The position numbers were made by a program, and so were the translations under genes. From an uncultured Candidatus Saccharibacteria bacterium (lineage in GTDB: Bacteria; Patescibacteriota; Kazan-3B-28; UBA10110), in assembly GCA_964354145.1 (NCBI GenBank), contig CAYGXX010000002.1, positions 1 through 33,934 of the forward strand: a stretch of 33,934 nt of DNA. The letters are read 5' to 3'. Below, piece by piece: positions 6,127-26,818 of this stretch (its first letter is position 1; every line of letters starts with the position of its first letter). A model generated the notes under the pieces. The model was not told the DNA's origin, ran no database searches, and saw nothing but the letters and a program-made list of their open reading frames with translations.

Positions 6127-9042
6127 TCACGTTAGAGTAATAGTGATGCTGCCTGCATAATCACCAACATTTTTGGCATTATAAATCCGTATAGTCGGCA
6201 GCTGAGTAAATCCTCCTAAGCCATCCTTGCCACTGCCAGCCACCGAGGCAGCGGTCACCGCCGCATCCATATAATCCCCCGATTGAGTAGCAATATTGGT
6301 GATCGGCGCGGCATACAGCCCGGTGATGCTATCGCTAATCCAATACATATTATCTTTGGTGATAGTTGAATCGCCATCATACAATTCCGTAGTAACCGCG
6401 GCTGTGCAGGACCAACCCGCACTATTACCGCCCGTTACCCCTCGATTATCCCTAATAGTAATCTCTTCGCCAAGATCAAATGTATATGAATGGTAGGGAC
6501 TGCTGCCAATCTGCCAACTGCCTAAATACACCGCGGAGGGGGCGCTAACGGTCAAATCATAAGACGCGGCGGTCCTAAGAGAAGGATAGCTTTTGCCGCT
6601 ACCTAAAGGAATATCTGCTACCAAAATCTCATCGCGGATATTGAAGTAGTAGATGGTATTGGCATCAGCACTATAATTTTCAATACAATATTCAAATTCC
6701 GTGGTCGTGCTAGCCCGGTGATCAGAGAAGCTGGGGCCGTTTGAATTGCTTTCATTGTGAATCCCCCGATAGTCGGGGTCAGAACCATTCAGAAGCGCTG
6801 AAGGCAGAGTAACATTATCGTCGCCACCCCCGCCACTATAATAACGGAATGGGAAAAGAGTATCTGAAGTTGATCCCACGTTGGTCCAATTTACTTGGTC
6901 GGTACCAAACTGCAAAACCTTGCGGCTGTCGTTTTCGCCTACCCCTGCTGTTTCGGTCAGGTTAATCCGGAGTTTAAGTGGAATGGATTTGCCCATTTCT
7001 ATTTGGGGAGGGGCGGTGTTTTCAGCGGCATATGCCGTCAAAGGGGTGGCGTTAATTTCATCGGCGTACCACTGCCAGTTATTGATTTTAGGGGTATACC
7101 CATTTATCGTCACTGCTGCTTGAGTAACGGGGTAGGTATCAAAGGCGCTGCCATTATCATTAGCGCGGATATCATATTTCTTGGTGGCGCCGGAACCTAT
7201 AAGCGACCATTCGTATTCAGTAAAATTCCATCTTATCATGGTCGTGTCGCCGGCTGGACTGCCAGTTTCTTCCATCTCTCCCGCCGTAAAATCATAGCCA
7301 GTTTGATCAGTTAATTGCCTGGTGGTAACAGTGGCATCAGCAAATTGATCTGATGCCCGGATTTTAATAGGGGCGGCAGAAGTAGTAATTTCTATCCAAG
7401 ACCCGGGCGGTGAATTAACTCGATATTCTAATTTAGGTTGTAGGGTATCTGATTCTGTCCCGTTGTTGCGGATCTGAATGCGCAAGCGAAAATTAACAGT
7501 AGTGCTCGCATCATAGGTAGCCGCAGTATCTATAGCGATGGCGCCATTTTTATCCGTCCAAGCATCGTGGGTTTCATCATCATTATCCTCGTCAAACCAA
7601 TAACTGGTCTGCTCATAAATCGCCGCCCGCCAAGAAAGTGCCGCCGGGCTAGAGGCATAATTCATCGGCGGCATCACGCAACTATCATAAAGAGTGGCGG
7701 AGGGAGTGGCGGGGTTGTCGCCAAAACGGTGGGCGACCCCAGCCGTATTAGCACCCGGGTTAATGGTTACAAAATTCCACTCCGCTACTAATCGCTCGCC
7801 GGCAGAAATGGTTGCCGCCGATCCAGACCAAGTCATCTCTATTTGGCTATTATTAACACCCGATATCCAATTGGTTCCGCTGTTGGCTACGGCGATAATC
7901 GTATCCCCGATCGTGTCATCGGCATCCCAAGTGTAGATCATCCCCCGCAATTGGGCATTAACCGCTGCATTATCAGTGGTGCCATGGACATGGATGAGCC
8001 AAACACCCGCGGGAATGGTTTGGGCCGCCAAAGGCGGCGAAATAAAGGTATTCATCCTATAATTGTAACTGCCACTGCCAGTAGTGGTAGTAGTGTGGAT
8101 ATTAGCTTCCACTCCGCTACCCGGAACTGTGCTCATCCTGCGCGCATCCAAAGTACTGGTTTCAAAACTATCGCCAGTTTGCGAAGCATTCGGTCCTGGT
8201 TCAGGAGGAACCGAGGTATTAGTAAAATAGATGGGGTCAGAAGTATCCACCGTGGTCCCGCCAATAGTAAGATAACTGGCTGGATTGAGATTGGCAGTAT
8301 CCTCCGCTACTACTACATTCCCGCCCCAGCGCACAGTACAACTACGAGAAGTGGCGTTGGAATCGTTCAACAACCAAACCTCCACTGCCAAAAAATCATT
8401 ATTATCGCTAGTGTAGGTAGTAGAGGCGCCTATCGTATTAGTAACTGTCGTGATTCTCCCTTGATCCGTAGCCCCTGCTTCAACTCCGCTGGTAGGACCA
8501 GCCAACATATCCTCCATATGATTGTCAACGGAGTCATAAACATACACATAATATCGCGGGAGCATATTAGCGGCGGGATTGCTTTCATCAAAGGACATTC
8601 CGACCTTAAAAGTGGTACTGTCACCGTTAAATACTGTGTTGATAGCCAGCGGCATAATAAACGTTCGTACCCACATATAATGGGCAGTGTCGTTAACAGC
8701 TTCAGTAACAACTATATTATCTGATGTGTCTGAAACAGCATTAGTAACAGGCCCCGCCACCGGCGCCATTGTATAAGCCGTGGTGCTACCACTAACGGCT
8801 TCTTCACTGGTGTCCGAACTGAATTCCGCCGTCGGACCTGTCACGCCAAAGGCGCCAGTGGCAGTCCGGATATCGCTTTTAAAATAAAAAGTAGTCTGGC
8901 TGGCAGACTGGGCTTCAGTCTTTTTGGGATTCAGCACCGTCACGCTCAAGTCACTGATATCCCAACGCAGCAGAGAAATGCTGGTCGTAAAGACCAACAG
9001 CCAACTAATACCAGCAAGAATAGGTTTGTAGCGGCGACGCAT
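6127..9042 (-). CDS. 971-aa secreted/anchored surface protein, modular head plus C-terminal WxL-like domain (locus A giant)
   Basis: N-terminal hydrophobic signal/anchor (ILAGISWLLVFTTSISLL). T/S/N/G-rich and Cys-poor. The last ~140 aa follow the WxL-type pattern (TVSAPSAVYLGSW..ITIRDNRG..AGWSCTAAV..VGDYAGSITITLT-stop). Confidence 0.85.
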   Translation of the reverse strand: MRRRYKPILAGISWLLVFTTSISLLRWDISDLSVTVLNPKKTEAQSASQTTFYFKSDIRTATGAFGVTGPTAEFSSDTSEEAVSGSTTAYTMAPVAGPVTNAVSDTSDNIVVTEAVNDTAHYMWVRTFIMPLAINTVFNGDSTTFKVGMSFDESNPAANMLPRYYVYVYDSVDNHMEDMLAGPTSGVEAGATDQGRITTVTNTIGASTTYTSDNNDFLAVEVWLLNDSNATSRSCTVRWGGNVVVAEDTANLNPASYLTIGGTTVDTSDPIYFTNTSVPPEPGPNASQTGDSFETSTLDARRMSTVPGSGVEANIHTTTTTGSGSYNYRMNTFISPPLAAQTIPAGVWLIHVHGTTDNAAVNAQLRGMIYTWDADDTIGDTIIAVANSGTNWISGVNNSQIEMTWSGSAATISAGERLVAEWNFVTINPGANTAGVAHRFGDNPATPSATLYDSCVMPPMNYASSPAALSWRAAIYEQTSYWFDEDNDDETHDAWTDKNGAIAIDTAATYDASTTVNFRLRIQIRNNGTESDTLQPKLEYRVNSPPGSWIEITTSAAPIKIRASDQFADATVTTRQLTDQTGYDFTAGEMEETGSPAGDTTMIRWNFTEYEWSLIGSGATKKYDIRANDNGSAFDTYPVTQAAVTINGYTPKINNWQWYADEINATPLTAYAAENTAPPQIEMGKSIPLKLRINLTETAGVGENDSRKVLQFGTDQVNWTNVGSTSDTLFPFRYYSGGGGDDNVTLPSALLNGSDPDYRGIHNESNSNGPSFSDHRASTTTEFEYCIENYSADANTIYYFNIRDEILVADIPLGSGKSYPSLRTAASYDLTVSAPSAVYLGSWQIGSSPYHSYTFDLGEEITIRDNRGVTGGNSAGWSCTAAVTTELYDGDSTITKDNMYWISDSITGLYAAPITNIATQSGDYMDAAVTAASVAGSGKDGLGGFTQLPTIRIYNAKNVGDYAGSITITLT

Positions 9043-9055
9043 AAATTACTTTACT

Positions 9056-10561
9056 TTAAGATGGTTTACGGCGCCGGGGCTTGCTCCGGCGAGGCGGGCG
9101 AGGAGAAGAGGGTCCTTTACTGGACTTAATCTTAATATTAACGGGCCCCGGCAACAGGGGCACCAGGAGTTCTTGCCCGGCAGAGAGCCGATAAGGCCAC
9201 TTTAAGTGATTGAGGGCAATAATGTCTCTCTCGCTTACTCCAACAAACTCCGCCACAGTTTTGACACTATCCCCCGCTTCGGCGATCACTGGCTCTAAGC
9301 CGCTTTCTGTCATTCCGACCAACCCTTTTGTCATTATAGGAAAGCTAACCCCTCCTCTCCTCCCCTTATATAAGGGGAGGTTGGGTGGGGTTACGGATTT
9401 TCCGCGGCGTTCTTCTTTGGTTAATTGCCCTTGCGGGATTAAGAGAATATCTCCCGCCATTAAGTCATAGGGCCACTTCAATAAATTAAATTTGGCGATC
9501 TTTTTAGGATTCACCTCATAAATACTGGCGATCATAGTCAGGGTTTCGCCCTTTTTCACCCGGTGCTCTAAAGTTTTAGTATTCAGGCGCTGGCGAATCA
9601 TAATCCATAGCCAGAACTTACGCACTAGCAACAAGAGAGCCAATCCTATCAACCACCAGAGGATAGTCATCCAAGGAATCAGCCAGAAAACATAGCGCAC
9701 ATCCTGATATTCGTCTTTGATATAATTGCCCTGGAAGTCTTCTTCACCATAATGAATCCTGAAATCAACTACAAACCGCCCGAATTTCGGTGGCTTTTTT
9801 TGCCAAGGGATTCTAGCATTGATTTGCCCCCCTCGAAGGATCATCCCAAATTGAGATTTTTTCTGCTCTCCCGCGGAGCCAAAAATCCCCCGTAATTTGA
9901 CATCCGCTTTCGGAGTTAGCTGGACATTGCCGTCATTGTGCATCGTCATCTGAAAGTACAGCACACCTTTATAAATAGTGTGAGTAACATTCTCAACCCG
10001 GAGTGCTCTTATAATATCCCCCGGCACTGTTAAATACAGCCGGGCGGCGACGCGGGTGACCACCGTCAATTGCCCGGCGCTTTTCTTTGTATCAGCAGTA
10101 GCTGTTGTGTCTTCCCAAATTACTACTCCCCCCGGGTGGCTCCCCACATCGGCATTAGCCGGAACTTTCACGGTCAAATCTATGGTTTGCTGGGTCTTGG
10201 GCGGCAAAGTAACACTGGTGCGGCTTAAAGTAGCCCAGGTCCCCACATCCTTATTAGCTTCCACATCTCTCACCAAAGTATAGCCGCCATCTTTAGTCAC
10301 TGCCCCATCCAGCACAGCAACTTTTAAGGCAACTGTGCTATTGCTATGATTCTTAATTAATACCTTATCTCTAATCTCCGTTCCGGGATCAGCCTCGTAA
10401 ACAAACCAAGACCGCAAAACAGGATACTCTTTGGTGGTAGCCGGAAACACGCTAACGCCGTACCCCTCCATAGCAAAAACCCGCACCGGCGCGAAACTGA
10501 GTATAACAAAAGCCAGGATAACCAGCCCCAGTCGGTGGATTGTTGATTGATGCCCCTCCAT
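9056..10561 (-). CDS. DUF916/DUF3324-like surface protein with single TM and C-terminal 2x LysM tail (locus A)
   Basis: Signal peptide, then WFVYEADPGTEIRDKVLIKNHSNSTVALKVAVLDGAVTKDGGYTLV (DUF916-like pattern). Then ARLYLTVPGDIIRAL..YFQMTMHNDGNVQL (DUF3324-like pattern). TM segment VFWLIPWMTILWWLIGLALLLLV followed by RK..RQR. LysM 1 is HRVKKGETLTMIASIY..GDILLIP and LysM 2 is AEAGDSVKTVAEFVGV..GQELLVP. Basic tail PRPPRRSKPRRRKPS. Confidence 0.85.
   Translation of the reverse strand: MEGHQSTIHRLGLVILAFVILSFAPVRVFAMEGYGVSVFPATTKEYPVLRSWFVYEADPGTEIRDKVLIKNHSNSTVALKVAVLDGAVTKDGGYTLVRDVEANKDVGTWATLSRTSVTLPPKTQQTIDLTVKVPANADVGSHPGGVVIWEDTTATADTKKSAGQLTVVTRVAARLYLTVPGDIIRALRVENVTHTIYKGVLYFQMTMHNDGNVQLTPKADVKLRGIFGSAGEQKKSQFGMILRGGQINARIPWQKKPPKFGRFVVDFRIHYGEEDFQGNYIKDEYQDVRYVFWLIPWMTILWWLIGLALLLLVRKFWLWIMIRQRLNTKTLEHRVKKGETLTMIASIYEVNPKKIAKFNLLKWPYDLMAGDILLIPQGQLTKEERRGKSVTPPNLPLYKGRRGGVSFPIMTKGLVGMTESGLEPVIAEAGDSVKTVAEFVGVSERDIIALNHLKWPYRLSAGQELLVPLLPGPVNIKIKSSKGPSSPRPPRRSKPRRRKPS
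9347..9393. repeat. family C palindromic element inserted in frame in a CDS
   Basis: aacccctcctctcctccccttatataaggggaggttgggtggggtta. Nearly identical to 11762-11807. Translated as TPPNLPLYKGRRGGV in the linker between the two LysM domains. Confidence 0.8.
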
Positions 10562-10732: not shown

Positions 10733-12322
10733 CTATATTGGGAGGGTTATGAGGTCGGAGCGCTGAAAAATCATCGCTATCTTGTCGCTGTAGAGCAGTT
10801 TCCACTCCTCCGGATGCGCCATAAAGTAATCTCGGGATGTCCGGTTAGAAAACACCAGTGCTAACCCCGCATCATAACGACTCAATACATCAGGGGTGGC
10901 TTCCTGATTTTTACCGACGGTTAAATAATCCGCAAAAATATCTTGAGTAGGGGTTTGCCAAACCGCCATCCGCCCGTCAATAAACACCTGCTTTTCGGGT
11001 AATTGCCAGATCAAATATCCTCCCCAGTTATACTCATTAAATAACTTGCCGGCGGGCTGCTTCTCTTTAATATATTGCGCCGCTTGATAAGGATAGCCGG
11101 CAATTCTCCCCCAGGCAGAGGGGTCATAAGTATAGGGCAAGATCTCATAATACCGCAAATAACCTATATATATAATGATGGGCACCAGCCCCACGACCAG
11201 CCAGCGGTTGCGCAGATAATAATAGATGCCCTTAGGAAAAAGCTGGTCAATCATATCTCCCAGCAAGGGCAGGGCGATCAAAGGGAAAAACGGCAAATTG
11301 CGCCAGCTAGTAAGAGATATAACGAAGAAAATTACCGCTAAACCTAACTTGACGACATCCAACCGGCGCCAAGTCCACGGAAGAAGCAGCAACAACCAAA
11401 CGGTATAAATAATCAAATTCTGGCTTTGCGGGTTGGCCCATTGGACGGGATTCCATTCTGAAATTCCAGCGTACACTGCTGGGTTAAATACGGTGCGGAT
11501 AATTTCGTCATATACTCGCCAAGTATAGGGATTGATAAAAGTAACCCCCACCATCAAGGCAATTACTATGGCTAATTCTATTAACTGGCGCACGGTCAGT
11601 ACTGGCCCGATGAGTTTCTTCTTAGAATAATACTGCCAAATGGTTTTGCCGGTTGCCAGAGCCAAAAATACTCCGGCTAGCAACAGACCAGCGACAAATC
11701 CCCCATGCAAATTGACCCAAATTAGCATCAAAGGCACTAGCCAATAGATCCGATGAAAGGCAACCCCTCCTCTCCTCCCCTTAGCAAGGGGAGGTTGGGG
11801 TGGGGTCTTGGTAGATTGATAATACCAAGCGAATAAGAGATAAAGAGTAGCAGCCAATCCCACCAAAGTAATGACTTGGGCCCGGATGCCGACAATCGGT
11901 AGAGCGACCAGCGCCGCCACGAAGGTAATCAGCACCACTACTTCCCATCGGGCTTTAGATACCGCCGCCGACAATAAATAAGCTGCGACCACCAGTCCAG
12001 CAAATAGAGCCGACAAAAACCAAAACCCCAAGTAGTGGCTGCTTAAATACAATCCCACATCCGTTAGCCATTCATGGGAAACCCAAGGGTAACCGAACAT
12101 AGTATAAGAATAAAGATCGCCTCGCGGCACCCCGAAGCGCAAAATATCGGCGCCGTTACGGAGGTGCCAACCTAAATCCGGGTCAGTCGGTGGGCGCATC
12201 AGTATAATCAAAGCTAATACTAAAACCAGACCGCTAAACCACCAGATAATTCTGTCCGGCGCACCTAAGTGGGTTAACTTATTCGTTTTCTGCGGCGGGC
12301 GCAAGGCCCTTAACCTGGACAT
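10733..12322 (-). CDS. polytopic GT-C-type membrane protein with STT3/PglB-like loop motifs (locus A)
   Basis: 529 aa with about 11-13 hydrophobic segments. First external loop DPDLGWHLRNG..HEWL. Later loop GISEWNPVQW. After the last TM, NEYNWGGYLIWQLPEKQVFIDGRM. Paralogue of 20463-22037. Confidence 0.8.
   Translation of the reverse strand: MSRLRALRPPQKTNKLTHLGAPDRIIWWFSGLVLVLALIILMRPPTDPDLGWHLRNGADILRFGVPRGDLYSYTMFGYPWVSHEWLTDVGLYLSSHYLGFWFLSALFAGLVVAAYLLSAAVSKARWEVVVLITFVAALVALPIVGIRAQVITLVGLAATLYLLFAWYYQSTKTPPQPPLAKGRRGGVAFHRIYWLVPLMLIWVNLHGGFVAGLLLAGVFLALATGKTIWQYYSKKKLIGPVLTVRQLIELAIVIALMVGVTFINPYTWRVYDEIIRTVFNPAVYAGISEWNPVQWANPQSQNLIIYTVWLLLLLPWTWRRLDVVKLGLAVIFFVISLTSWRNLPFFPLIALPLLGDMIDQLFPKGIYYYLRNRWLVVGLVPIIIYIGYLRYYEILPYTYDPSAWGRIAGYPYQAAQYIKEKQPAGKLFNEYNWGGYLIWQLPEKQVFIDGRMAVWQTPTQDIFADYLTVGKNQEATPDVLSRYDAGLALVFSNRTSRDYFMAHPEEWKLLYSDKIAMIFQRSDLITLPI
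11762..11807. repeat. family C palindromic element inserted in frame in a CDS
   Basis: aacccctcctctcctccccttagcaaggggaggttggggtggggtc. Translated as TPPQPPLAKGRRGGV in a loop that is ~16 aa shorter in the paralogue (YRFRRGESRHLWYVPL). Confidence 0.8.
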
Positions 12323-13961
12323 CTGGCAATTTACTTAATAATTCGCGGACGCTCGGGATAGTTAAATCATAATAAGCTAAATAACCCACACCTCCCCTTA
12401 AAGTTAATTTAGAGTATGGCTCAGTGGGGACCCCCCCTTTATTGCGAATGATTATCATATAGGAATCGCTCGGCAGTATCTCCAGCTCATCTAATAAAGA
12501 TAGTTGGTGTTGGTAAGCCAGCATCCATTTTTTATTATCCGGATTATATATCCCCCAAGTAGTATGAATATATACTGGATACTCGGGCAGGTAATACTCA
12601 AACTGAGGAAACCCCCAATTGATAAACGGATCGTCTATGCCAATAAGGGAATTTTGGGGATTAAAATTGCTGCGAATATCCGGAATAATGTTACGCCACA
12701 GCACATTACTCCACCCAATCGCAGAATGAGTACCTTTTTGCATATTAATGTTAGTATCCGGCTTAACATAAGTGAAGACATTGAATCCGGCTATGCCCAT
12801 AGCTATCACTACTATCAATTTAGTTATTAATAACGACTTATTGCCTTGAACGTGATAGGCAGCTAACAGCGCCTCAATCAAACCAATAACTGACACCGCG
12901 ACCAAAATAGTCAGGGCTGGCAGCACCAGAAGAAGATACCCCGGGATAGTAAATACCACTATTAGATAGAACAGCATAGCTGGTATAACCCAGAGGACCC
13001 AAAACCAAAGATTAAGCAGATTCAACTTACGCTCGCCAGCTTGCGGAGCCAGCCAAGAAGCCAAGTAAGCTATTGTAGCAATGGCGGCTAACCCGAAGTT
13101 AAGCAGTAAGTTGTTCCAAATTAACTTGCTATACAAAACTAACTTAGCCAGTCCCTTGTCAAATATTGAGAAGCTGTAGAGCCCGGATTTGCCCAAAAGT
13201 ATGCTGCTGAGGGCATGCCAGAACTTGAGCAGTCCGCCGCTTAGCCACATTGCCGGGAGTAGCCAAGCTAAAGTCCCTCCCAGAATAATCAATATACTAA
13301 TAAGTAGCCCCCGGGAGCTGCGCTGGCGCCATATCACCCATAACCACAGCGGCGTCATAAATATCACCAAGGTGGGGCGGAAACCTCCGCCAATAGCCAA
13401 GATCAAACTTGCCCAAAAAAGCGCTTTGTGATCCTTAGTATCAGTGGCGGCGCGATACAAATAGATCCCTGCCCAAGCGGCGAAGAAAGCATCGCAGGCA
13501 TAATTGAGAGCGACTTGCCCGTAAAACCAAAGCAAGGGGCCGGTAACCAATAGAATTATGCTTAACCAAGCTACCCTTTTCCCATAAACCAACTTCGCCA
13601 AATGAAATACCGCATAAAGAGCCAAGACCGAAAAGATAATACTGACTATTACTAATGCTAAATTGGCATCGTGAGTTAGAAAGTAAAAACCTTTAGTAAA
13701 CAATATATATAAAGCGTAGCCCGGTGGATGCGGCTGGTGCAAACTGATATCATAATGGTCCAGGGCCAAGGCATACAGTGCCGAATCAGTGGAATATAAA
13801 TATTCCGATTTGCCAATCCATCGACTAATGATTATCCCCAGCGCCATCACCCCTAACCAATAATTATCTGACCGCACCACGATTGAATTAAATAAGCTCT
13901 GCGGTTTAATCTTCCGCAGACGGGCACGCAACCTTTTGATTTTAGCGATGAGTTTTTTCAT
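12279..13961 (-). CDS. GT-C glycosyltransferase, PMT_2/ArnT/DUF2723 (TMEM260)-like
   Basis: 560 aa with more than 10 TM segments. The first loop has DSALYALALDHYDISLHQPHPPGYALYIL (acidic residue plus HPPGY motif). C-terminal ~150-aa soluble domain. Present only in locus A. Overlaps the next gene by 44 nt. Confidence 0.75.
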   Translation of the reverse strand: MKKLIAKIKRLRARLRKIKPQSLFNSIVVRSDNYWLGVMALGIIISRWIGKSEYLYSTDSALYALALDHYDISLHQPHPPGYALYILFTKGFYFLTHDANLALVIVSIIFSVLALYAVFHLAKLVYGKRVAWLSIILLVTGPLLWFYGQVALNYACDAFFAAWAGIYLYRAATDTKDHKALFWASLILAIGGGFRPTLVIFMTPLWLWVIWRQRSSRGLLISILIILGGTLAWLLPAMWLSGGLLKFWHALSSILLGKSGLYSFSIFDKGLAKLVLYSKLIWNNLLLNFGLAAIATIAYLASWLAPQAGERKLNLLNLWFWVLWVIPAMLFYLIVVFTIPGYLLLVLPALTILVAVSVIGLIEALLAAYHVQGNKSLLITKLIVVIAMGIAGFNVFTYVKPDTNINMQKGTHSAIGWSNVLWRNIIPDIRSNFNPQNSLIGIDDPFINWGFPQFEYYLPEYPVYIHTTWGIYNPDNKKWMLAYQHQLSLLDELEILPSDSYMIIIRNKGGVPTEPYSKLTLRGGVGYLAYYDLTIPSVRELLSKLPDVQVKGLAPAAENE

Positions 13962-14213: not shown

Positions 14214-14239
14214 TAAAAAAGCGCCCACCCTAGGACGCC
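14214..14239 (-). terminator. rho-independent terminator after the locus A small WxL-like gene
   Basis: On the minus strand: GC-rich hairpin gcgtcc-tagggt-gggcgc followed by tttttt, about 30 nt after the stop codon. Confidence 0.6.
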
Positions 14240-14269
14240 TTAGACGATTGAAATTAACCCTACTAAATA

Positions 14270-14863: not shown

Positions 14864-14913
14864 TTGTTTAGGTATTTTTAAGCTCTTATGAGCTATTTTT
14901 ACATTATTATCTT

Positions 14914-14942
14914 ATTATACCACTATTTTTCACCTTTGTAAA
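14914..14942 (-). promoter_or_regulatory. sigma70-type promoter for the locus A small gene
   Basis: On the minus strand: TTTACA, a 17-nt spacer, then TATAAT (ctttacaaaggtgaaaaatagtggtataataag). Shares the tggtataataa block with the locus B promoter. Confidence 0.6.
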
Positions 14943-19503: not shown

Positions 19504-19698
19504 CCGTAAATATAGGGAATATTAATTAAAGTCTGCAATGAAACATTTGCAAGTTGTTTCAAGTATCACTAATATAGTAGTTGTTATGTTTGTTGAATTG
19601 TCCGCGCAGAATTATGAATGATGGGAAAACAAAGGATGCGAGAGTTAAGCAAGACTGCATGAATAAGAGACCGCTTTCGCCAAGAAAGAGAAATGGGC

Positions 19699-19727
19699 TT
19701 GACTAAATTATGGAATGGTGGTATAAT
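19699..19727 (+). promoter_or_regulatory. sigma70-type promoter for the locus B small gene
   Basis: TTGACT, a 17-nt spacer, then TATAAT (cttgactaaattatggaatggtggtataataaa), 12 nt upstream of the GTG at 19739. Confidence 0.65.
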
Positions 19728-19738
19728 AAATTAATAAG

Positions 19739-20383
19739 GTGATTTTAAACCATATAAAACTAAAAATGAAAACTAAGATTGCTAAATTTTTGCAGGACCA
19801 AGCGGAGGTAAACCGACAGATGTTGATATTGGGAGCGGTACTTTTTTTCGCCGGGAGTATGGCAATCGGCACGATTGAGTTGGCACAGGCGGGACTGACC
19901 GGGGACACTAATATAGCCCAGAACGTCAGTGCAGGTAGTTTAGCGCTGACCGTCTCCAACGCCCAGTTAAATTTTAATGCTGGTGGTGTCGGTGATACTA
20001 CCACTGCCAATACTGGGAGTGGAGCGGGCAATGCCATAATTGTCCAGGATACCACTGGTAGCGGAACGGGTTGGGATGTCACGGGTTATTTCAATACTAA
20101 TTTTGTTAAAACTGGCGATACTAATATCCAGATGGCCATCACTGCAATGTCTTGGTATCCTGGCGCAATGACAATATCTAATAACACAGGCAACAACGCT
20201 GATGTAGATGCAGGCACTAACGGTGCTTTTGCTGGTAATGGTGATGGTAATCCTAAAACCCTGGCCAATTCTGATAATGCTCCGGGCAAATTTGATCTCT
20301 ATAACCTCAAATTTAATTACACAATTCCAATAGAGGCAGAAGCGACTGATTACACGACAAATCTAAGGTTGACTATCGCTTAA
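19739..20383 (+). CDS. small secreted WxL-like surface protein (locus B)
   Basis: 214 aa (alternative ATG at 19766). Signal peptide MLILGAVLFFAGSMAIGTIELAQA. SAGSLALTVSNAQLNFNAGG, then IIVQDTTGSGTGWDVTGYF, and it ends ATDYTTNLRLTIA-stop. Confidence 0.8.
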   Translation: MILNHIKLKMKTKIAKFLQDQAEVNRQMLILGAVLFFAGSMAIGTIELAQAGLTGDTNIAQNVSAGSLALTVSNAQLNFNAGGVGDTTTANTGSGAGNAIIVQDTTGSGTGWDVTGYFNTNFVKTGDTNIQMAITAMSWYPGAMTISNNTGNNADVDAGTNGAFAGNGDGNPKTLANSDNAPGKFDLYNLKFNYTIPIEAEATDYTTNLRLTIA

Positions 20384-20407: not shown

Positions 20408-20433
20408 CCTGTGCGATCAAGCACAGGTTTTTT
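20408..20433 (+). terminator. rho-independent terminator after the locus B small gene
   Basis: cctgtgc-gatcaa-gcacagg hairpin followed by tttttt. Confidence 0.75.
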
Positions 20434-20462: not shown

Positions 20463-22037
20463 GTGACTATCATAAGTAAAAATAGAAAAATGAAAAATGC
20501 AGAAAAACCCGGGCGGCGGATGGGTTGGTTGAGTTCACTGACCATATTGGAAAAATTGGGGTTGTTGCTTTTAGTGGGACTAGGACTGCGACCAATTTTA
20601 GACCCCGATTTTGGTTGGCATCTGCGGGCGGGCACCGATTTAGTGGCTAATTATTTTCATCCCCCCAAATTTGACGTTTATTCTTATACTATGTCTGATT
20701 GGTCATGGGTGGACCACGAGTGGCTAACAAATGGTATTGCCGCTCTAATCCATAACGGGCTAGGGCCGCTGGTGTTAATTATATTGTTCGCTTTGCTGAT
20801 AGCAGGCACTTTTCTTTTAGCAGCATCAATCGAACGAATAGAGCTACCTTACAAAATATTAGCAGCTGTGATCGGTTTGCTAGCCGCTCTGCCTATCACT
20901 GGTGTCAGGATGCAAATGATTACCCTGCTGGGGATGGCTTGGCTCCTGTGGACTCTCTACCGCTTCCGCCGAGGTGAGTCACGACATCTTTGGTATGTAC
21001 CTTTAGTATTTGTAGCTTGGGCGAATTTACATGGTGGATTTTTGATCGGGTTGGTGATACTGGCAGTGTTCTGGATATGTGAAGCTATCAAGTATGCTAT
21101 TTCGCACTGGTGTCCCGTCTGGTACAAAAAGTTACATGTTACTGAAATAACATTAAACTGCCGACAGTTGCACCACTTGGGAGTAATTGGGTTGCTAGCA
21201 GGGGCGGCTACTCTAATTAATCCCTACAGCTGGGGACTCTACTATGATTTCTACAAATTATTTACCAACCCCTTTGCAATTAAAAATATTGCCGAGTGGC
21301 AACCAGTGTCACTAGCATTCAATCACCCCATGGCCCTTGATTTCACATTGTATTTAATTCTGTTCGCGCTGGTACTGATTCTGACCTATCGTAAGATAGA
21401 GCCAACCCGGTGGATACTTAGTGGTTTGTTTCTCTGCCTCTCATTTCTCTATTGGCGCAATTTGCCATTTTTTATGATTATGAGCGTAGGATTTTTGGCA
21501 GAGATCATGCAAGAGCATACCAGTTTAGTATTCAAAACACTTAGTCAAAATAAATGGGTATTAGTGGTGGCTACCTTGATAGTAGGAATAATTATTGGCC
21601 AGCGAATTATTGATGTAGGTAGTAAGATAACTGACCCCCTAAAAAATTTCCGGGCGGGAGGTTACCCCATCGATGCTATCCGCTGGGCTAAGAATAATCC
21701 TGACAAACTAGGGAACCGGATGTTCAATGAATATGACTGGGGCGGTTTTCTGATTTGGCAATTCCCAGAACAAAAAGTATTTGTGGATGGTAGGATGCCT
21801 TTTTGGAAAATTGGCGATCGGTTTCCTTTCTTTGATGAACAATACTCGATTGGAGCAGAACCAGGTTCCATTGAAATGCTAAAGAACAAATATAATGTGG
21901 ATTGGATGTTAATCCGCCCGCAGCGCCCCCTAGCTATTGCCCTAACTGGACAAGATGATTGGATACAAATTTATCGTGATAACTCTGCAGTAATCTACCG
22001 CAAAATTACCAATACAGATAAGAGCACACAACAATAG
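20463..22037 (+). CDS. polytopic GT-C-type membrane protein with STT3/PglB-like loop motifs (locus B)
   Basis: 524 aa. DPDFGWHLRAG..HEWL, WANLHGGF, NIAEWQPVSL, WRNLPFF and NEYDWGGFLIWQFPEQKVFVDGRM. Paralogue of 10733-12322. GTG start at 20463, or ATG at 20490. Confidence 0.8.
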   Translation: MTIISKNRKMKNAEKPGRRMGWLSSLTILEKLGLLLLVGLGLRPILDPDFGWHLRAGTDLVANYFHPPKFDVYSYTMSDWSWVDHEWLTNGIAALIHNGLGPLVLIILFALLIAGTFLLAASIERIELPYKILAAVIGLLAALPITGVRMQMITLLGMAWLLWTLYRFRRGESRHLWYVPLVFVAWANLHGGFLIGLVILAVFWICEAIKYAISHWCPVWYKKLHVTEITLNCRQLHHLGVIGLLAGAATLINPYSWGLYYDFYKLFTNPFAIKNIAEWQPVSLAFNHPMALDFTLYLILFALVLILTYRKIEPTRWILSGLFLCLSFLYWRNLPFFMIMSVGFLAEIMQEHTSLVFKTLSQNKWVLVVATLIVGIIIGQRIIDVGSKITDPLKNFRAGGYPIDAIRWAKNNPDKLGNRMFNEYDWGGFLIWQFPEQKVFVDGRMPFWKIGDRFPFFDEQYSIGAEPGSIEMLKNKYNVDWMLIRPQRPLAIALTGQDDWIQIYRDNSAVIYRKITNTDKSTQQ

Positions 22038-22071: not shown

Positions 22072-23589
22072 TTGGCGAAGAAAATTAAATCTTTATCTTG
22101 TTTGTTGGTCTTGCTAGTAGGCGTTATGTTACCAGCGTCAGCTTTTGGGCTGGCCGCTAGTGGTATGAGTATTGCGCCAGAGGTAAATGCTAAGTTTCCC
22201 GACCGCAAGGGTTGGTTTATTTACGAAGAAGTGGAACCCGGCGCAGTCATTGAGGATGCAGCCAGGGTAATAAACTTAGGCGACAAGCCCAACACTATCA
22301 CTATCGAAGCTGTGGATGCACTTATGACTCCCGATGGCGGTTTTGCTCTAATAGGAGAACCAAAGAACAATACAGACATTGGCAACTGGATAGAACTCAC
22401 TAAAACCGAAGTAACCTTAGCCCCCAATAAAGAACAAATTATCCCCTTCAAAATTAAAGTGCCCGAAGACGCAGAGGTGGGAGACCATATTGGCGCATTA
22501 GCGGTGTACCGGAGTAACCAAGAAACAGAAGGAACCATTAAAGCTGGGGGCGCCCAAGTAAGTATCAGCACCCGAGTGGGCGCCCGGATATATCTGACCG
22601 TTAAAGGAAATATTACCCGCCAACTAACACTGCTTAAGCGAGCGATGTATGGTCGTGGTCAAAAACTGATCTTCTATTTCAAAATGGAGAACTTGGGTAA
22701 TATTCGAGCTGAAGTAGCAATGACGACCAAGATTTATAGTATTTGGGGACTCTACGACAGCAAAGAAAATATTTCCATCGGGCAAATCTTTCCTAAGCAA
22801 ACTACTACGATTGAAACAACCTGGCCAGGCAAAGGGAGACCGATTTTTGGTCCTTACTTAGCTCTCATTACTCTTGAGGATACCTTCCAAGGGCTAAACC
22901 CAGCTCAAAGCACCATGCCGCCGCCTGCTCCACCGATTCATACCTGGGCACTCTTCTTCTTTATCCCCTACACTCAAATGGCGGTTCTACTTATTCTGCT
23001 TTTCCTCATTTGGTTTATTATTCAAGCGAGACGTTGGAGGCAGATGGCCCGGTTGGCACAAATGCGAGTAGTAGCCCACAGGGTCAAGCGAGGTGATCAT
23101 TTAGTAGATATTGCTGCTCACTACGGAATAAGTTGGAAGCTATTGGCCCAGTTGAATGAAATCAAACCGCCATATGACTTCAAAGAAACCAAAACCATCT
23201 ATGTGCCTGATAGGCAAGGTCAATGCAGATATCTGCCAGTTCCTAACATATTGGCTTATTTGTTTGCCCAAATTCTTCATCCTGGTTTCTTCTTCCGTCA
23301 TCCTGAACTCGATTCAGGATCTCCAGGATCTAGATTCCGGCTCGGAGGCCGGAATGACAAGGCAGAGCCCGGAATGACAAGAGGAAGATCGGACAGAATG
23401 ACAAAAGGGGTTGTCATCAAGCCGACTAGTTACACCATCATTATTCAGCCAGGCGATACCCGGAAGGATGTGGAACAATTCACAGGATTAGCTTGGAAAA
23501 AGATAGTCAAATTTAATCGCCTGAAGCCCAAGTTTCGGCTAAAAGCCGGACTTGAATTGGAGGTACCAGAACAGGATGATGAAAAATAA
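22072..23589 (+). CDS. DUF916/DUF3324-like surface protein with single TM and C-terminal 2x LysM tail (locus B)
   Basis: 505 aa with a TTG start. Signal peptide. WFIYEEVEPGAVIEDAARVINLGDKPNTITIEAVDALMTPDGGFALI and ARIYLTVKGNITRQL. TM segment ALFFFIPYTQMAVLLILLFLIWFII followed by QARRWRQ. LysM 1 is HRVKRGDHLVDIAAHYGI and LysM 2 is IIIQPGDTRKDVEQFTGL..GLELEVP. Confidence 0.85.
   Translation: MAKKIKSLSCLLVLLVGVMLPASAFGLAASGMSIAPEVNAKFPDRKGWFIYEEVEPGAVIEDAARVINLGDKPNTITIEAVDALMTPDGGFALIGEPKNNTDIGNWIELTKTEVTLAPNKEQIIPFKIKVPEDAEVGDHIGALAVYRSNQETEGTIKAGGAQVSISTRVGARIYLTVKGNITRQLTLLKRAMYGRGQKLIFYFKMENLGNIRAEVAMTTKIYSIWGLYDSKENISIGQIFPKQTTTIETTWPGKGRPIFGPYLALITLEDTFQGLNPAQSTMPPPAPPIHTWALFFFIPYTQMAVLLILLFLIWFIIQARRWRQMARLAQMRVVAHRVKRGDHLVDIAAHYGISWKLLAQLNEIKPPYDFKETKTIYVPDRQGQCRYLPVPNILAYLFAQILHPGFFFRHPELDSGSPGSRFRLGGRNDKAEPGMTRGRSDRMTKGVVIKPTSYTIIIQPGDTRKDVEQFTGLAWKKIVKFNRLKPKFRLKAGLELEVPEQDDEK
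23297..23407. repeat. cluster of GTCAT..ATGAC-type palindromic elements inserted in frame in a CDS
   Basis: gtcatcctgaactcgattcaggatct, attccggctcggaggccggaatgac, gcccggaatgacaag and cagaatgacaaaag. Translated as RHPELDSGSPGSRFRLGGRNDKAEPGMTRGRSDRMTKG between the two LysM domains. Confidence 0.8.
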
Positions 23590-26500
23590 ATGTCATTATC
23601 TAAAAATTAAACACCCGCCCTATCTACTCAAGCCTTACAAACTAACTCGGTTTCAATGGTTAGTTTGGTTGGTTGGTATCAGTCTGATCTTCAATATCTT
23701 CGCTCTTATCCCTCTATCTTATGCCGCCACTACCGACGCCATGATCGTCTATGATGATCGGACTGTCGGCAACTCCACCCCCAAATACAAGCAGTGGAAC
23801 GGATCTTCTTGGGGCAGTGCGAGTTCCGCCACTGTGGTGACCGGAGATATCTTGTATATGGAATTAAAGTTCTCACCCGTTGCCGACAAAGCATTATTAC
23901 TAGTTCAGGGCAGCTCGGGAGTATTGTCTGCTCAAACGTGGACCGGAGGTGCCACTAACAGCTGGGGCTCGGTCACTACAATTGGAACATTAGGGCAAGG
24001 CACTCTGGAAGACGCCGGGACTAGTGATGCTGACTACTACCGGTCTTGGGATTTTGAATTTGAACAAACCTCCGGAGATGCCGTAGTGGTCTACAATGAC
24101 GGCACCGCCGATCCGGACTATAAGGTCTGGAGCAACTCTTCCGGTAACTGGGACGGTTCGGGTACTAACATTAACGTCCTGACCGCTGGTTCCCCTAACT
24201 GGATTGAGTTGGCTTCTCACCCAGGCAGTGATCGGCTCGCCATGATCTTGGTGGATAGTGCCGTGGACATCTACGGGATGAGGTGGGATGGTAGCGCCTG
24301 GGATGACATGAACTCTGGCGGAGACGAAGCGGTCTGGGATGCTAGTGCCGCCATCGCTACTCGCAAGTGCATGGATGTGGCCTTTGAGACCACAACCGGT
24401 GACATTATTTTTATTTGGGGAGACACCACTGCCACCGACCAGTATTACCGCGAATATTCCGAAAGCGGAGTAACCTTAGGAGCCGCTACCTTGTTGGATA
24501 TCTCCACTGCCAATACTACTAACTGGGTCCGTCTGGCTGCCGATCCAACCGCCTCCTCTGACCAGATCCTGTTAGGCGTGCAGGACGGATCACTCGACTT
24601 GAACACCCGAGAGTGGAGCGGGACGGGATGGGATGCCGCGCACTCTGAACATGACAGCGCAGTGGAAAACATCAGAAGCATGAACTTCGACATCATCTGG
24701 GAGACTCATTCCAGTAATCCCGGTGAGGCCTGGCTAGTCTACGGGGATGATGCCGGGACATCTTCTCGCCATTGGACCGGTTCGGCCTGGGACAGTATCG
24801 TCGCTCTGACCAGTGATGATGATGCTGCGGTAGTTCGGTTGGCAGCCAACCCTTATGATGGTGCTCTGTTAGCAGCCGTCTATGAAGATAATTCTTCTAA
24901 TTCCGATAATTTAGAAGAATCTCACATCACCGGCGGAGGCAGTGCTTGGTCTGCTCAGGGCGAGATTTGGACTGGACCGGTATATAGCAACACCGCCACG
25001 GAGTTTGGAGGGTCGGGCTTTCGCACAGCCATCGCCGCGGAGATGTATGGTTCTTCTACCGACGCCATGATCGTCTATGATGATCGGACTGTCGGCAACT
25101 CCACCCCCAAATACAAGCAGTGGAACGGATCTTCTTGGGGCAGTGCGAGTTCCGCCACTGTGGTGACCGGAGATATCTTGTATATGGAATTAAAGTTCTC
25201 ACCCGTTGCCGACAAAGCATTATTACTAGTTCAGGGCAGCTCGGGAGTATTGTCTGCTCAAACGTGGACCGGAGGTGCCACTAACAGCTGGGGCTCGGTC
25301 ACTACAATTGGAACATTAGGGCAAGGCACTCTGGAAGACGCCGGGACTAGTGATGCTGACTACTACCGGTCTTGGGATTTTGAATTTGAACAAACCTCCG
25401 GAGATGCCGTAGTGGTCTACAATGACGGCACCGCCGATCCGGACTATAAGGTCTGGAGCAACTCTTCCGGTAACTGGGACGGTTCGGGTACTAACATTAA
25501 CGTCCTGACCGCTGGTTCCCCTAACTGGATTGAGTTGGCTTCTCACCCAGGCAGTGATCGGCTCGCCATGATCTTGGTGGATAGTGCCGTGGACATCTAC
25601 GGGATGAGGTGGGATGGTAGCGCCTGGGATGACATGAACTCTGGCGGAGACGAAGCGGTCTGGGATGCTAGTGCCGCCATCGCTACTCGCAAGTGCATGG
25701 ATGTGGCCTTTGAGACCACAACCGGTGACATTATTTTTATTTGGTCTGATACTACCTCAACCGACCAGTATTACCGCGAGTACTCCCAAAGTGGCGTAAC
25801 CTTAGGGGCTGCTACCTTATTGGATGTTTCAGTGGCAGGAGGCATAGGCCACTGGTTAAGGTTGGCCGCCGATCCCACCGCCTCCTCCGATCAAATCCTA
25901 TTTGGGATGCAAGACGCCGGACTCGACTTGAACACCCGAGAGTGGAGCGGAACGGGATGGGATTCCGAGCACGCTGAACATGACGCAGGACTTGAGGTCT
26001 TAAAATGTATGAACTTCGACATCATCTGGGAAACTTATTCTGGCAACCCCAACGAGGCCTGGCTAGTCTATGGGGATGATGCCGGGACATCCTCCCGCCA
26101 TTGGACTGGTTCGGCCTGGGACGGTATCGTCGCTCTGACCAGTGATGATGACACTAGCCTAGTGCGATTGGCGGCCCTCCCCGACAGTGGGGATTTACTC
26201 GCTGCCTCGTATGAAAGCAATGCTGCCGCTACCGATAATTTAGAAGAATCTCACATCACTGGCGGAGGCAGTGCTTGGTCTGCTCAGGGCGAGATTTGGA
26301 CTGGGCCGGTTGAAAGTAGTACTGCCACGGAGATGGCCGGACCGGGATTTAAAGTAGCGATAGCCGGGGAGATAGCAGAAGGCGCAACATTAGGGATCAC
26401 CGCTCCGGCTGATGTTACTCTAACTACGGGCAATCCAGGCGACATTAAAGAAACTACTTGGAGCGCAGGTGAGAAGGTAGTGGTAACTGACGGCGGGTCA

Positions 26501-26818
26501 GGTTGGAGCTTGACGGTAATTATGCAGACCACTTTGACCGCGGAAGGGTCATATACCATCCCTGATGCGAATATAAAAATTCGCAAAGATGGCACAGTAG
26601 GCGGAGGGGGCGATGCTTATACGATCTGGTCAGGAACTTATACTAACATTACCGAGACCAACGCCACCGAATCATTAGATACATCGCGCACAGTAGGAGT
26701 ACGAAGCAGCGGTACGGGCGGTGATACATCGGAAGTGCGCCCAACCATTCAAGTGGTAATTCCGGTTGGGCAACATCCAGCCGATTACACTGGAGCTATG
26801 AGATTCACCGTGGCCTAA
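23576..26818 (+). CDS. ~1080-aa secreted surface protein: two tandem 442-aa W-x-G-x-x-W repeat modules plus C-terminal WxL-like domain (locus B giant)
   Basis: The ATG at 23576 (MMKNK) is preferred to the TTG at 23552 and overlaps the upstream stop by 14 nt. Signal/anchor WLVWLVGISLIFNIFALIPLSYA. The tail has LGITAPADVTL..VVVTDGGSGWSLTVIM..PADYTGAMRFTVA-stop. Confidence 0.85.
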   Translation: MMKNKCHYLKIKHPPYLLKPYKLTRFQWLVWLVGISLIFNIFALIPLSYAATTDAMIVYDDRTVGNSTPKYKQWNGSSWGSASSATVVTGDILYMELKFSPVADKALLLVQGSSGVLSAQTWTGGATNSWGSVTTIGTLGQGTLEDAGTSDADYYRSWDFEFEQTSGDAVVVYNDGTADPDYKVWSNSSGNWDGSGTNINVLTAGSPNWIELASHPGSDRLAMILVDSAVDIYGMRWDGSAWDDMNSGGDEAVWDASAAIATRKCMDVAFETTTGDIIFIWGDTTATDQYYREYSESGVTLGAATLLDISTANTTNWVRLAADPTASSDQILLGVQDGSLDLNTREWSGTGWDAAHSEHDSAVENIRSMNFDIIWETHSSNPGEAWLVYGDDAGTSSRHWTGSAWDSIVALTSDDDAAVVRLAANPYDGALLAAVYEDNSSNSDNLEESHITGGGSAWSAQGEIWTGPVYSNTATEFGGSGFRTAIAAEMYGSSTDAMIVYDDRTVGNSTPKYKQWNGSSWGSASSATVVTGDILYMELKFSPVADKALLLVQGSSGVLSAQTWTGGATNSWGSVTTIGTLGQGTLEDAGTSDADYYRSWDFEFEQTSGDAVVVYNDGTADPDYKVWSNSSGNWDGSGTNINVLTAGSPNWIELASHPGSDRLAMILVDSAVDIYGMRWDGSAWDDMNSGGDEAVWDASAAIATRKCMDVAFETTTGDIIFIWSDTTSTDQYYREYSQSGVTLGAATLLDVSVAGGIGHWLRLAADPTASSDQILFGMQDAGLDLNTREWSGTGWDSEHAEHDAGLEVLKCMNFDIIWETYSGNPNEAWLVYGDDAGTSSRHWTGSAWDGIVALTSDDDTSLVRLAALPDSGDLLAASYESNAAATDNLEESHITGGGSAWSAQGEIWTGPVESSTATEMAGPGFKVAIAGEIAEGATLGITAPADVTLTTGNPGDIKETTWSAGEKVVVTDGGSGWSLTVIMQTTLTAEGSYTIPDANIKIRKDGTVGGGGDAYTIWSGTYTNITETNATESLDTSRTVGVRSSGTGGDTSEVRPTIQVVIPVGQHPADYTGAMRFTVA
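23730..26382 (+). repeat. intragenic tandem duplication, 2 x 1326 nt
   Basis: 23730-24418 is identical by eye to 25056-25744 (689 nt). The remainder of each unit is clearly diverged, apart from a near-identical ~75-nt patch (24905-24980 versus 26231-26306). The identical antisense ORFs at 23990-24220 and 25316-25546 in the track confirm the 1326-nt period. Confidence 0.95.

Follow-up and report, generated by a model that had tools for sequence, protein, structure and literature searches.

WxL gene clusters are seen as a particular feature of Lactobacillales and Bacillales associated with the gut. Firmicutes account for over 91% of known WxL sequences (PMC9772566), and in these bacteria a cluster encodes a small WxL protein, a large WxL protein with host-binding N-terminal domains, and a WxLIP protein that binds and stabilises the WxL proteins (PMC9772566, PMC10599100). 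A WxL cluster has been defined by the presence, within four genes, of one or more WxLIPs together with two WxL proteins (Hassan, Chaudhuri & Williamson 2023, PMC10599100; PMC9772566). Direct contact between the components is seen in PDB entry 9i25, in which a WxLIP from Enterococcus faecium locus A is bound to a long WxL protein; our literature search found no paper describing this structure. Here we describe two clusters of this type, both of which fall within the published definition, in contig CAYGXX010000002.1, part of the metagenome-assembled genome of an uncultured Candidatus Saccharibacteria bacterium; the complete contig, of 33,934 bp, is what we call the window. The two cassettes are transcribed divergently, the left one on the minus strand and the right one on the plus strand, and they flank a 4.9-kb core. 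Every close homologue of their proteins is labelled Patescibacteria or candidate division Kazan, in agreement with the host from the candidate phyla radiation (CPR) that had been proposed in a first reading of the window, which we call the original prediction.

The eight open reading frames (ORFs) named in the original prediction are all present, at the positions given below, and all the peptide motifs quoted there are found in the translations. An identical four-gene order had been claimed for both loci. This is true of the right cassette, which we call type B and which runs from a small WxL-like protein through a GT-C-fold membrane glycosyltransferase and a WxLIP-like protein to a giant WxL protein. 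The left cassette, type A, contains a fifth gene that had been overlooked (13961..12279), and its order is small protein, PMT_2-like enzyme, GT-C enzyme, WxLIP, giant. Type A therefore has two GT-C enzymes in tandem where type B has one. Within the cassettes the genes overlap or sit close together, with a 44-nt overlap and gaps of 13 and 34 nt.

Like the WxL/Csc clusters of Lactobacillales and Bacillales (L. plantarum csc, E. faecium loci A-C, E. faecalis elr, and those of Listeria), the cassettes combine a small WxL protein, a large one whose WxL domain is C-terminal and whose N-terminal domains vary, and a WxLIP in one cluster, and there is likewise more than one paralogous cluster in the genome. 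They differ from the Firmicutes clusters in their CPR host, in the one or two GT-C genes inside the cluster, in a WxLIP that continues into two LysM domains, and in having no LPxTG protein. In addition, the second WxL motif is without its Trp, the window proteins score under the Pfam WxL cut-off, and the small proteins carry a conserved N-region before their hydrophobic segment. In the strict sense of membership, the cassettes depart from the described clusters on three points: the Pfam WxL score, the degenerate second Trp-x-Leu, and a transmembrane (TM) helix that is not C-terminal in the WxLIP.

The single domains are not new, as automated annotation already names some orthologues "WxL domain-containing" or "LysM peptidoglycan-binding domain-containing". 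What is new is a WxL cluster in CPR with integrated GT-C enzymes, a LysM-extended WxLIP, exchangeable giant heads and an old divergent pair of cassettes. The original prediction knew of no described version with a GT-C enzyme, LysM tails and a CPR host, and our search of the literature found none: no paper treated WxL in Patescibacteria or CPR, none described GT-C enzymes or a LysM-tailed WxLIP in WxL clusters, and the two bioinformatic studies of WxL and WxLIP (PMC9772566 and PMC10599100) mention neither CPR nor glycosyltransferases nor LysM. NCBIfam searches returned LysM-level matches only.

We refer to the loci or contigs that bear homologues as L001, L002 and so on; L001 is Kazan RBG_13_50_9, L010 is the complete Kazan genome CP011216, L016 is from Kerfeldbacteria, L017 and L018 are segments of a single contig of 48 kb, and L031 is Candidatus Nitrospira defluvii FP929003.1. 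The cassette order recurs in other CPR, namely in Kazan, Moraniibacteriota and Kerfeldbacteria, so that the gene-neighbourhood check proposed in the original prediction came out in favour of a conserved order. Type A, with one or two WxLIP-LysM genes between the GT-C gene and the giant, is found in L001, L010, L002/L012, L004 and L018, and type B, without the PMT_2-like gene, in L007, L008/L009, L013 and L017. The PMT_2-like gene is also missing from L011, L014, L015, L016 and L020, which we placed provisionally with type B and in which the order is more variable. The GT-C gene lies directly upstream of the WxLIP gene or genes in every cassette-bearing locus that reaches that position. Of these loci, all but L016, where none was detected, have a small WxL gene further upstream of the GT-C gene; in most cases it is directly adjacent to the GT-C gene, and in L011 and L014 it is several kb away. 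A giant with a WxL-like domain follows downstream wherever the locus extends far enough. Some loci carry additional copies of single genes: there are two tandem GT-C genes in L015 (240-3534), two tandem WxLIP genes, the first of them LysM-rich, in L002, L007, L010 and L018, and two small WxL genes in L001, L013 and L020.

The paralogous proteins of the two cassettes are homologous and diverged, as had been claimed. By BLASTP, left and right copies are 29% identical for the small proteins (E 3e-8), 32% for the ~525-aa GT-C proteins (E 4e-81) and 28% for the WxLIP-like proteins (E 9e-54), while the giants have only their C-terminal domain in common. At the DNA level, the likeness between left and right comes to just 57 nt at 75% identity, a stretch shared by the two ~525-aa membrane-protein genes. 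With protein similarity far above chance and a DNA remnant of this size, the pair is not an assembly repeat, again as originally stated.

A second species holds a comparable pair. On the L017/L018 contig, type A and type B cassettes lie on opposite strands and flank thrS-miaA-GT2...proS-argS, and the type B cassette follows argS and precedes PGA_cap as it does in the window. Between this species and the window, housekeeping proteins are 44-67% identical, type-B proteins 52-61% and type-A proteins 24-37%; the last figure points to faster evolution or to replacement of type A. A neighbour-joining tree separates the type-A GT-Cs from the argS-linked type-B GT-Cs as two clades, and each window copy groups with its own type. 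The duplication is therefore older than the divergence of these species. Both lines of evidence, the synteny of an A/B pair at proS-argS in a second species and the tree, bear out the proposal of an old duplication kept in both copies. In the nearest relative, L004 (proS 86% and argS 81% identical), there is no type B cassette and argS is directly followed by PGA_cap, an arrangement that led us to consider a recent horizontal insertion of the right cassette. This was ruled out, as L008 and L017 also carry this cassette after proS-argS, the identity of its proteins to those of L017 lies within the housekeeping range, and L017 and L018 hold both cassette types on one contig. The absence of type B from the L004 lineage is best read as a loss, which is the simpler reading.

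The left small protein (14270..14863, minus strand, 197 aa) consists of a conserved N-region, one hydrophobic segment and a WxL-like domain. Its right counterpart (19739..20383, plus strand) has 214 aa when read from a GTG, an ATG near 19766 being another possible start. In both, a single N-terminal hydrophobic segment is followed by a domain of ~150 aa, which fits the description of small WxL proteins (~180 aa). Pfam WxL is the top match of the left protein, at 22.4 bits (E 1.4e-4) and under the gathering cut-off of 25, and the right protein has no Pfam WxL match at E <= 1. WxL is likewise the top Pfam match, at 14-24 bits, for five of the six small proteins of related loci, and type-B small orthologues score 14.3 bits. 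P0124, an orthologue 61% identical to the left protein, carries PF13731 and the NCBI name "WxL domain-containing protein"; P0133, another relative, also carries PF13731. The right protein is matched by our hidden Markov model (HMM) of CPR WxL-like domains and is 60% identical to its L017 orthologue.

An exhaustive search with the CPR WxL-like profile found 1931 representatives at E <= 1e-3, among them proteins of ~190 aa as well as large ones that have the domain at their very C-terminal end. Among the best 146 of these 1931, 91 match Pfam WxL at E <= 0.01 (best 6.9e-19), and some of the profile matches come from Streptomyces and Nonomuraea and bear the label WxL. Of the two Trp-x-Leu motifs, the first persists as W-x-[V/L/C], with Trp in at least 90% of sequences. 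These profile matches support the assignment of the small proteins and both giant tails to the WxL superfamily. The WxL assignment made in the original prediction thus stands on profile evidence, but the Pfam cut-off is missed and the second Trp-x-Leu is degenerate.

In the type-A small proteins (14270-14863 in the window; P0122-P0130, L001 and L004), a conserved N-region of ~20 residues (…AENQVRQQLFGG…) precedes the hydrophobic segment. An ordinary Sec signal peptide would not usually have such a region, which may mark an uncleaved anchor or a dedicated recognition step.

The left giant (6127..9042, minus strand, 971 aa) is made up of a lineage-specific head (residues 1 to ~650), a shared module (650-818) and a WxL-like tail (819-971, nt 6127-6588), and the right giant (23552..26818, plus strand, 1088 aa, with an ATG at 23576) ends in a tail at nt ~26387-26818. 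BLASTP between the two giants is insignificant, the sole aligned stretch being tail to tail (26% over 154 aa, E 1.4), and neither tail has a Pfam WxL match at E <= 1. Our first HMM, made from eight CPR small proteins, matched the giant tails of L002 and L001 and missed those of the window, for which significance was gained only after tails from other loci had been added. Searched against 6347 ORFs, HMM it3, which contains neither window giant tail and is in this respect non-circular, matches residues 819-971 of the left giant at E 2.3e-37 and residues 949-1091 of the right giant (in ORF numbering, 1091 residues) at E 8.3e-6. In both giants the WxL-like domain thus occupies the extreme C-terminus.

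The heads behave differently from the tails. The ~320 residues from 650 to 971 of the left giant are 30-36% identical to giants of L016, L018, L010, L002 and L020, whereas residues 1-650 are not shared. Against the nearest relative, L004, the left head is 51% identical, compared with 80-82% for the GT-C and WxLIP proteins. The right giant and its L017 orthologue have tails that are 55% identical and heads that are unrelated, while the neighbouring proteins are 52-61% identical. Unrelated heads on a common tail, originally described for the two window giants, are therefore found between orthologous cassettes as well: the giant heads have been swapped. No Pfam or PDB match to the heads was found by sequence. 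The right head consists of two tandem copies of ~442 aa (23730-25055 and 25056-26381, period 1326 nt), whose first ~650 nt are 100% identical and the rest 67-95%; the perfect ~650-nt repeat could be the product of recent gene conversion or an assembly artefact. In the L004 giant (13372-16629), an insertion of ~95 residues lies within the WxL-like tail and splits the HMM match into 845-909 and 1004-1086.

The left WxLIP-like protein (9056..10561, minus strand, 501 aa) is composed of a signal peptide, a first immunoglobulin-like (Ig-like) domain that corresponds to DUF916/PGBD, a second Ig-like domain, a TM helix and two LysM domains. The right one (22072..23589, plus strand, 505 aa), which is 52% identical to its L017 counterpart, also has two LysM domains after the TM helix. 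WxLIP_PGBD (PF06030, formerly DUF916) matches at 35.2 bits on the left and 34.1 bits on the right, against a cut-off of 27.3, and Pfam LysM is above threshold in both (60.2 and 48.1 bits). Most of 40 WxLIP homologues carry PF06030. DUF3324 (PF11797) gave no sequence match in the window copies, the related loci or the 40 homologues.

An AlphaFold2 model of the left protein (mean pLDDT 81) contains a signal helix, beta-sandwiches at residues 36-179 and 187-294, a 30-residue helix at 297-326, and two LysM folds at 328-390 and 422-468. In a Foldseek search of the PDB with this model, the top three matches are E. faecium WxLIP entries, from 9i25_C (E 5.2e-14) and 9i1y, with E values up to 2e-12; the alignments cover ~273 columns of targets of 251-267 residues and span both Ig domains. 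The predicted ectodomain superposes on both Ig-like domains of 9i1y and 9i25 with a TM-score of 0.62-0.65 (target-normalised). Relative to the E. faecium proteins, sequence identity is 12-14%, the CPR protein extends into LysM, and DUF3324 is undetectable by sequence. The next strong fold matches are mostly chaperone-usher chaperones (CfaA, Caf1M, FimC, CsuC; E 1e-9 to 1e-7). As modelled, the WxLIP architecture of DUF916, second Ig domain and TM helix appears to be present, with a LysM extension. Of the DUF916/DUF3324 and LysM content originally proposed for this gene, the DUF916 and LysM domains and a two-Ig model were recovered, but DUF3324 was not detected by sequence. The TM helix is not the C-terminal element of the protein, as ~175 residues with the two LysM domains follow it. 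A single internal TM helix was found in 23 of 25 WxLIP homologues, and the 15 residues that flank it have a mean net charge of -1.2 towards the ectodomain and +3.1 towards the LysM domains.

The ~525-aa membrane proteins belong to an uncurated family (left, 10733..12322, minus strand, 529 aa; right, its paralogue, 20463..22037, plus strand, 524 aa). The right protein is 61-62% identical to the argS-linked orthologues in L017 and L008. The proteins have no Pfam or NCBIfam match at E <= 1 and match no PDB chain in a profile search; UniRef labels their homologues "Glycosyltransferase RgtA/B/C/D-like". An AlphaFold2 model, computed from a 40-sequence alignment (pLDDT 90.5), has about 11 membrane helices and a C-terminal alpha/beta domain. 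In Foldseek against the PDB, all 13 matches with E <= 1e-3 are GT-C enzymes and most of them are protein glycosyltransferases; they include DPY19 C-mannosyltransferase, AglB, STT3, AftA and PglB (E 3.6e-7 to 4.6e-4). The arabinosyltransferases AftB and Emb, like AftA, are also fold matches. The GT-C enzyme of the original prediction is thereby confirmed by fold. Like GT-C protein glycosyltransferases (DPY19, AglB/STT3/PglB, PMT/TMEM260), the protein has a membrane core of many helices, an acidic motif in its first outer loop, and a C-terminal soluble domain with a strongly conserved aromatic/Gly motif (Y-N-W-G-G-Y-L-I-W ... D-G-R); the fold probability is 1.0 and the TM-score 0.42-0.58 (query-normalised). 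It has no sequence-level relation to the curated GT-C families and is much shorter than the oligosaccharyltransferases (OSTs). The acidic motif, D47-P-D49, lies just after TM1. D49 and D69 are invariant in the 40 sequences, as are H83, R147 and a C-terminal block, Y-x-x-G-G-x-L-x-W ... D-G-R, in which the D-G-R is D449-G-R451.

We confirmed 570 relatives of the GT-C family among species-representative genomes. Outside the cassette-bearing CPR lineages the family occurs in Nitrospira, Chloroflexi, Acidobacteriota, Saccharibacteria, Daviesbacteria and Woesebacteria, and in this genome survey no WxL or WxLIP gene was found within 10 kb of those loci. The idea that the family is exclusive to WxL loci is ruled out by these stand-alone members in many phyla. 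A dedicated GT-C enzyme in each cassette, as had been proposed, is thus present in both, but its family is not specific to WxL loci. In Ca. Nitrospira defluvii (L031, 8020-12583), the GT-C gene is operonic, following a carbamoyltransferase gene and lying beside a GT2 gene. In L007 (7153-8835), a Wzy_C/O-antigen-ligase-like TPR protein is encoded just upstream of the type-B cassette.

The fifth gene of the left cassette (12279..13961, minus strand) encodes a polytopic PMT_2/TMEM260-like GT-C protein of 560 aa; it lies between the small gene and the GT-C gene, and it is the latter that it overlaps by 44 nt. The protein matches Pfam PMT_2 at 37.5 bits (cut-off 26.1) and TMEM260-like at 19.9 bits, and orthologues pass the TMEM260-like cut-off of 24.2 with 34.7, 25.7 and 25.3 bits. 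Orthologues occupy the same position in L001, L002, L004, L010 and L018. A sequence search of the PDB gave no match. The two tandem GT-C genes are not duplicates of each other, a possibility ruled out by an hhalign probability of 2%.

Directly downstream of the left giant (span 3166..6069) are genes for a methyltransferase-GtrA fusion (6069..4717, minus strand; Pfam GtrA_DPMS_TM 78.4 bits), a methyltransferase (4745..4041, minus strand; Methyltransf_11) and a GT2 glycosyltransferase (3930..3166, minus strand; Pfam Glycos_transf_2 99.5 bits). Judging by these families, the genes would supply parts for making and flipping a lipid-linked sugar. These genes are also found beside the type-A cassettes of L001, L002 and L004, which together with the window makes four lineages in which GT2 and GtrA adjoin type A. 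In the window, the trio of GT2, GtrA and GT-C is present beside the left cassette only, and type B has no donor genes of its own. Three-component extracytoplasmic glycosylation systems such as Gtr (GtrA/GtrB/GtrC) and CsbB/GtcA/YfhO are likewise built from a GT2, a GtrA and a GT-C protein. As in those systems, a GT2, a GtrA-family domain and GT-C transferases are encoded together beside type A; here, however, GtrA forms a fusion with one methyltransferase and is accompanied by another, the two tandem GT-Cs are unrelated, and the setting is a cluster for surface proteins, not a locus for polysaccharide or teichoic acid.

Both cassettes have similar candidate expression signals, found as matches to consensus, around the small gene. 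On the left, a promoter-like site shortly before the small gene (14914..14942, minus strand; TTTACA-17-TATAAT with an extended -10 TG, 11/12 matches) has the highest score within 5900-15300, and a terminator-like hairpin with a 9-bp stem and a T tail directly follows the gene (14218..14241, minus strand; top-ranked in the region). On the right, the best promoter-like site, again shortly before the small gene, is at 19699..19727 (plus strand; TTGACT-17-TATAAT with TG, 11/12 matches) and the hairpin, also top-ranked in its region, at 20408..20427 (plus strand). This symmetry of promoter and hairpin suggests that the small protein may be made in excess over the downstream enzymes and partners.

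From the observed domain identities, GT-C fold, conserved gene order, age of the duplication and head swapping, we infer how such a complex might form, be displayed and be glycosylated. We read the cassettes as encoding a WxL-type surface complex of CPR with variable giant heads, in which the GT-C enzymes glycosylate the co-encoded WxL and WxLIP proteins, and we give this reading a probability of about 0.62. The small WxL protein would be expressed from the promoter-proximal gene, with the hairpin probably holding its level above that of the downstream genes. By homology with the Firmicutes system, the small protein and the WxL-like tail of the giant would dock at the cell surface on the WxLIP, anchored in the membrane by its TM helix and offering two Ig-like domains. 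The variable head of the giant, displayed outward, would then be the functional payload, an exchangeable adhesin or host-interaction module. GT2 and GtrA would supply a polyprenyl-phosphate sugar, which the GT-C enzyme or enzymes would transfer outside the membrane, preferably to the co-encoded Ser/Thr/Asn-rich WxL or WxLIP proteins during or after their export. Protein acceptors are favoured because each cassette of a reduced genome has retained its own GT-C paralogue, the two being 32% identical, which speaks for a partner specific to the cassette and against one wall polymer common to both; because the best fold matches are protein glycosyltransferases; and because the second enzyme belongs to O-mannosyltransferase-type families.

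Several observations weigh against this reading. Neither small protein of the window attains the Pfam WxL gathering score, the second Trp-x-Leu motif has no Trp (FTL, LTI, ITL or FTV at the C-terminus), and the CPR WxL profile matches no PDB chain by sequence search. The LysM pair is predicted to be cytoplasmic because, in a protein with a cleavable N-terminal signal, it lies on the positively charged side of the single TM helix; the surface-anchor model does not explain this. On this prediction the LysM tails are not obvious wall anchors, a side of the matter for which the originally proposed "LysM tails" do not account, although the two LysM domains themselves are present. Peptidoglycan-binding modules are not usually located in the cytoplasm: either the pair binds a protein or a GlcNAc-containing ligand there, or the topology rule fails in this case. 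The acceptor of the GT-C enzyme need not be a WxL protein, because the family stands alone in Nitrospira, Chloroflexi, Acidobacteriota and many other CPR. Finally, N-x-S/T is enriched relative to shuffled sequences only in the left small protein (z 3.4) and a close orthologue (z 3.0), with no enrichment in type-B small proteins, giants or WxLIPs; the signal is too inconsistent to speak for an OST-like acceptor.

Because the family stands alone elsewhere and the sequon signal is inconsistent, a wall-polymer acceptor is a serious rival, which we nevertheless consider fairly unlikely. The same WxL-type complex would be formed, but the GT-C enzymes would decorate a wall or membrane glycopolymer (peptidoglycan, a teichoic-acid-like polymer or a lipoglycan) that serves as the docking platform for WxL domains, in the manner of the three-component GtrA/GtrB/GT-C systems. 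The trio beside type A has the classic layout of those systems, the WxL-less relatives include one in Nitrospira with carbamoyltransferase and GT2 in a glycan context, and AftA, AftB and Emb are among the fold matches. What counts against a polymer is what favours proteins: a diverged GT-C paralogue kept inside each cassette of a very small genome, the best fold matches, which are to DPY19, AglB, STT3 and PglB, and the match of the second enzyme to the protein O-mannosyltransferase families PMT_2 and TMEM260.

The chaperone-usher chaperones that make up most of the strong WxLIP matches after the E. faecium entries raise another alternative, in which the WxLIP is a membrane-tethered chaperone that completes the WxL fold by strand insertion, the small WxL protein polymerises into a fibre or surface layer, and the giant is the tip or outermost component, possibly of a glycosylated S-layer-like coat. 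An AlphaFold2 prediction reported in PMC10599100 has a DUF916 strand inserting into WxL, and a promoter and following hairpin at the small gene, seen in both cassettes, are typical of genes for major structural subunits. We think this very unlikely, given that no usher-like or sortase-like gene lies in or beside the cassettes, that Firmicutes WxL proteins are not known to polymerise, and that two-Ig-domain folds are common, so that the chaperone matches may reflect a generic fold only. Scarcely credible is the suggestion that the GT-C, LysM-tail and WxL genes are independent of one another and adjacent by historical accident, in a neighbourhood conserved beside aminoacyl-tRNA synthetase genes. 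The region is indeed syntenic with the housekeeping genes thrS, miaA, proS and argS in several genomes, and the GT-C family does occur alone. However, the internal order survives where housekeeping proteins are 44-67% identical and is kept in the differently flanked loci L007, L013, L016 and L020, the coding regions overlap or lie close together (by 44 nt, and with gaps of 13 and 34 nt), and a GT-C gene is retained in both paralogous cassettes.

CPR bacteria are believed to lead a life of attachment to other cells, and to our knowledge their attachment machinery is almost unknown. If the cassettes encode a WxL-type surface complex with glycosylated components, as we prefer to read them, giants with swappable heads on a conserved tail are concrete candidate adhesins of CPR, and the cassettes offer a testable link between surface-protein display and extracytoplasmic glycosylation. 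With conserved, duplicated WxL clusters in several CPR lineages, the system reaches into a very different part of the bacterial tree. There is now a high-confidence model, with defined invariant residues, for a GT-C family that is widespread and uncurated, and why LysM domains should lie on the side predicted to be cytoplasmic is a clear puzzle. A bolder version, which we hold to be decidedly unlikely as a whole, is that the ~525-aa protein founds a new family of bacterial protein glycosyltransferases with an OST/DPY19-like fold, recruited in some CPR lineages into WxL clusters to glycosylate the cognate WxL proteins. The cassette would then be a host-attachment organelle of an episymbiont, with the WxLIP as a strand-donating platform, the cytoplasmic LysM pair coupling placement of the complex to peptidoglycan-precursor synthesis, and the giant heads setting host range.

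The core between the cassettes (14864..19738) has the content originally claimed for it: a GIY-YIG gene (15249-15599, plus strand), tRNA-Pro(TGG) (15617-15692, minus strand), proS (15786-17042, plus strand), a second GIY-YIG gene (17186-17473, minus strand) with 51-nt inverted repeats on both sides, and argS (17617-19503, plus strand). The two GIY-YIG genes score 61.9 and 64.9 bits in Pfam. Between the right giant and PGA_cap, a gene at 26992-28434 encodes a 480-aa Ser/Thr/Pro-rich protein with a signal-like N-terminus and a Gly8 run, for which no family match was found. It has its own strong promoter-like site (26937-26965) and is missing at the same place in L017, where PGA_cap directly follows the giant.

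Three short repeats are scattered through the window. A palindromic repeat of ~50 nt (TAACCCCTCCTCTCCTCCCCTTAT / ATAAGGGGAGGTTGGGTGGGGTTA) occurs at 2128-2179, 3986-4051, 9340-9393 and 11755-11806, with two copies intergenic and two in frame within coding sequence. One coding copy is in the left WxLIP, in the linker between LysM1 and LysM2, and the other is in a loop of the GT-C protein of the left cassette; both encode ...KGRRGGV... and fall in low-confidence regions of the models. The repeat looks like a miniature mobile element tolerated in disordered loops. A second short palindromic repeat (CCGTCATCCTGAACTCGTTTCAGGATCTC) is found at 5864-5950, inside the methyltransferase-GtrA ORF, at 15259-15290, at the N-terminus of the first GIY-YIG ORF, and at 23294-23325, in the inter-LysM linker of the right WxLIP. 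Copies of the third (TGTCATTCCCGCG...CGGGAATCCAG) lie at 13999-14050, 17138-17188 and 17479-17529; the last two are the 51-nt inverted repeats, 80% complementary, that bracket the GIY-YIG gene at 17186-17473, and the extra copy lies in the intergenic stretch that separates the left small gene from the PMT_2-like gene. The arrangement suggests that this repeat and the GIY-YIG gene together form a small mobile GIY-YIG element.

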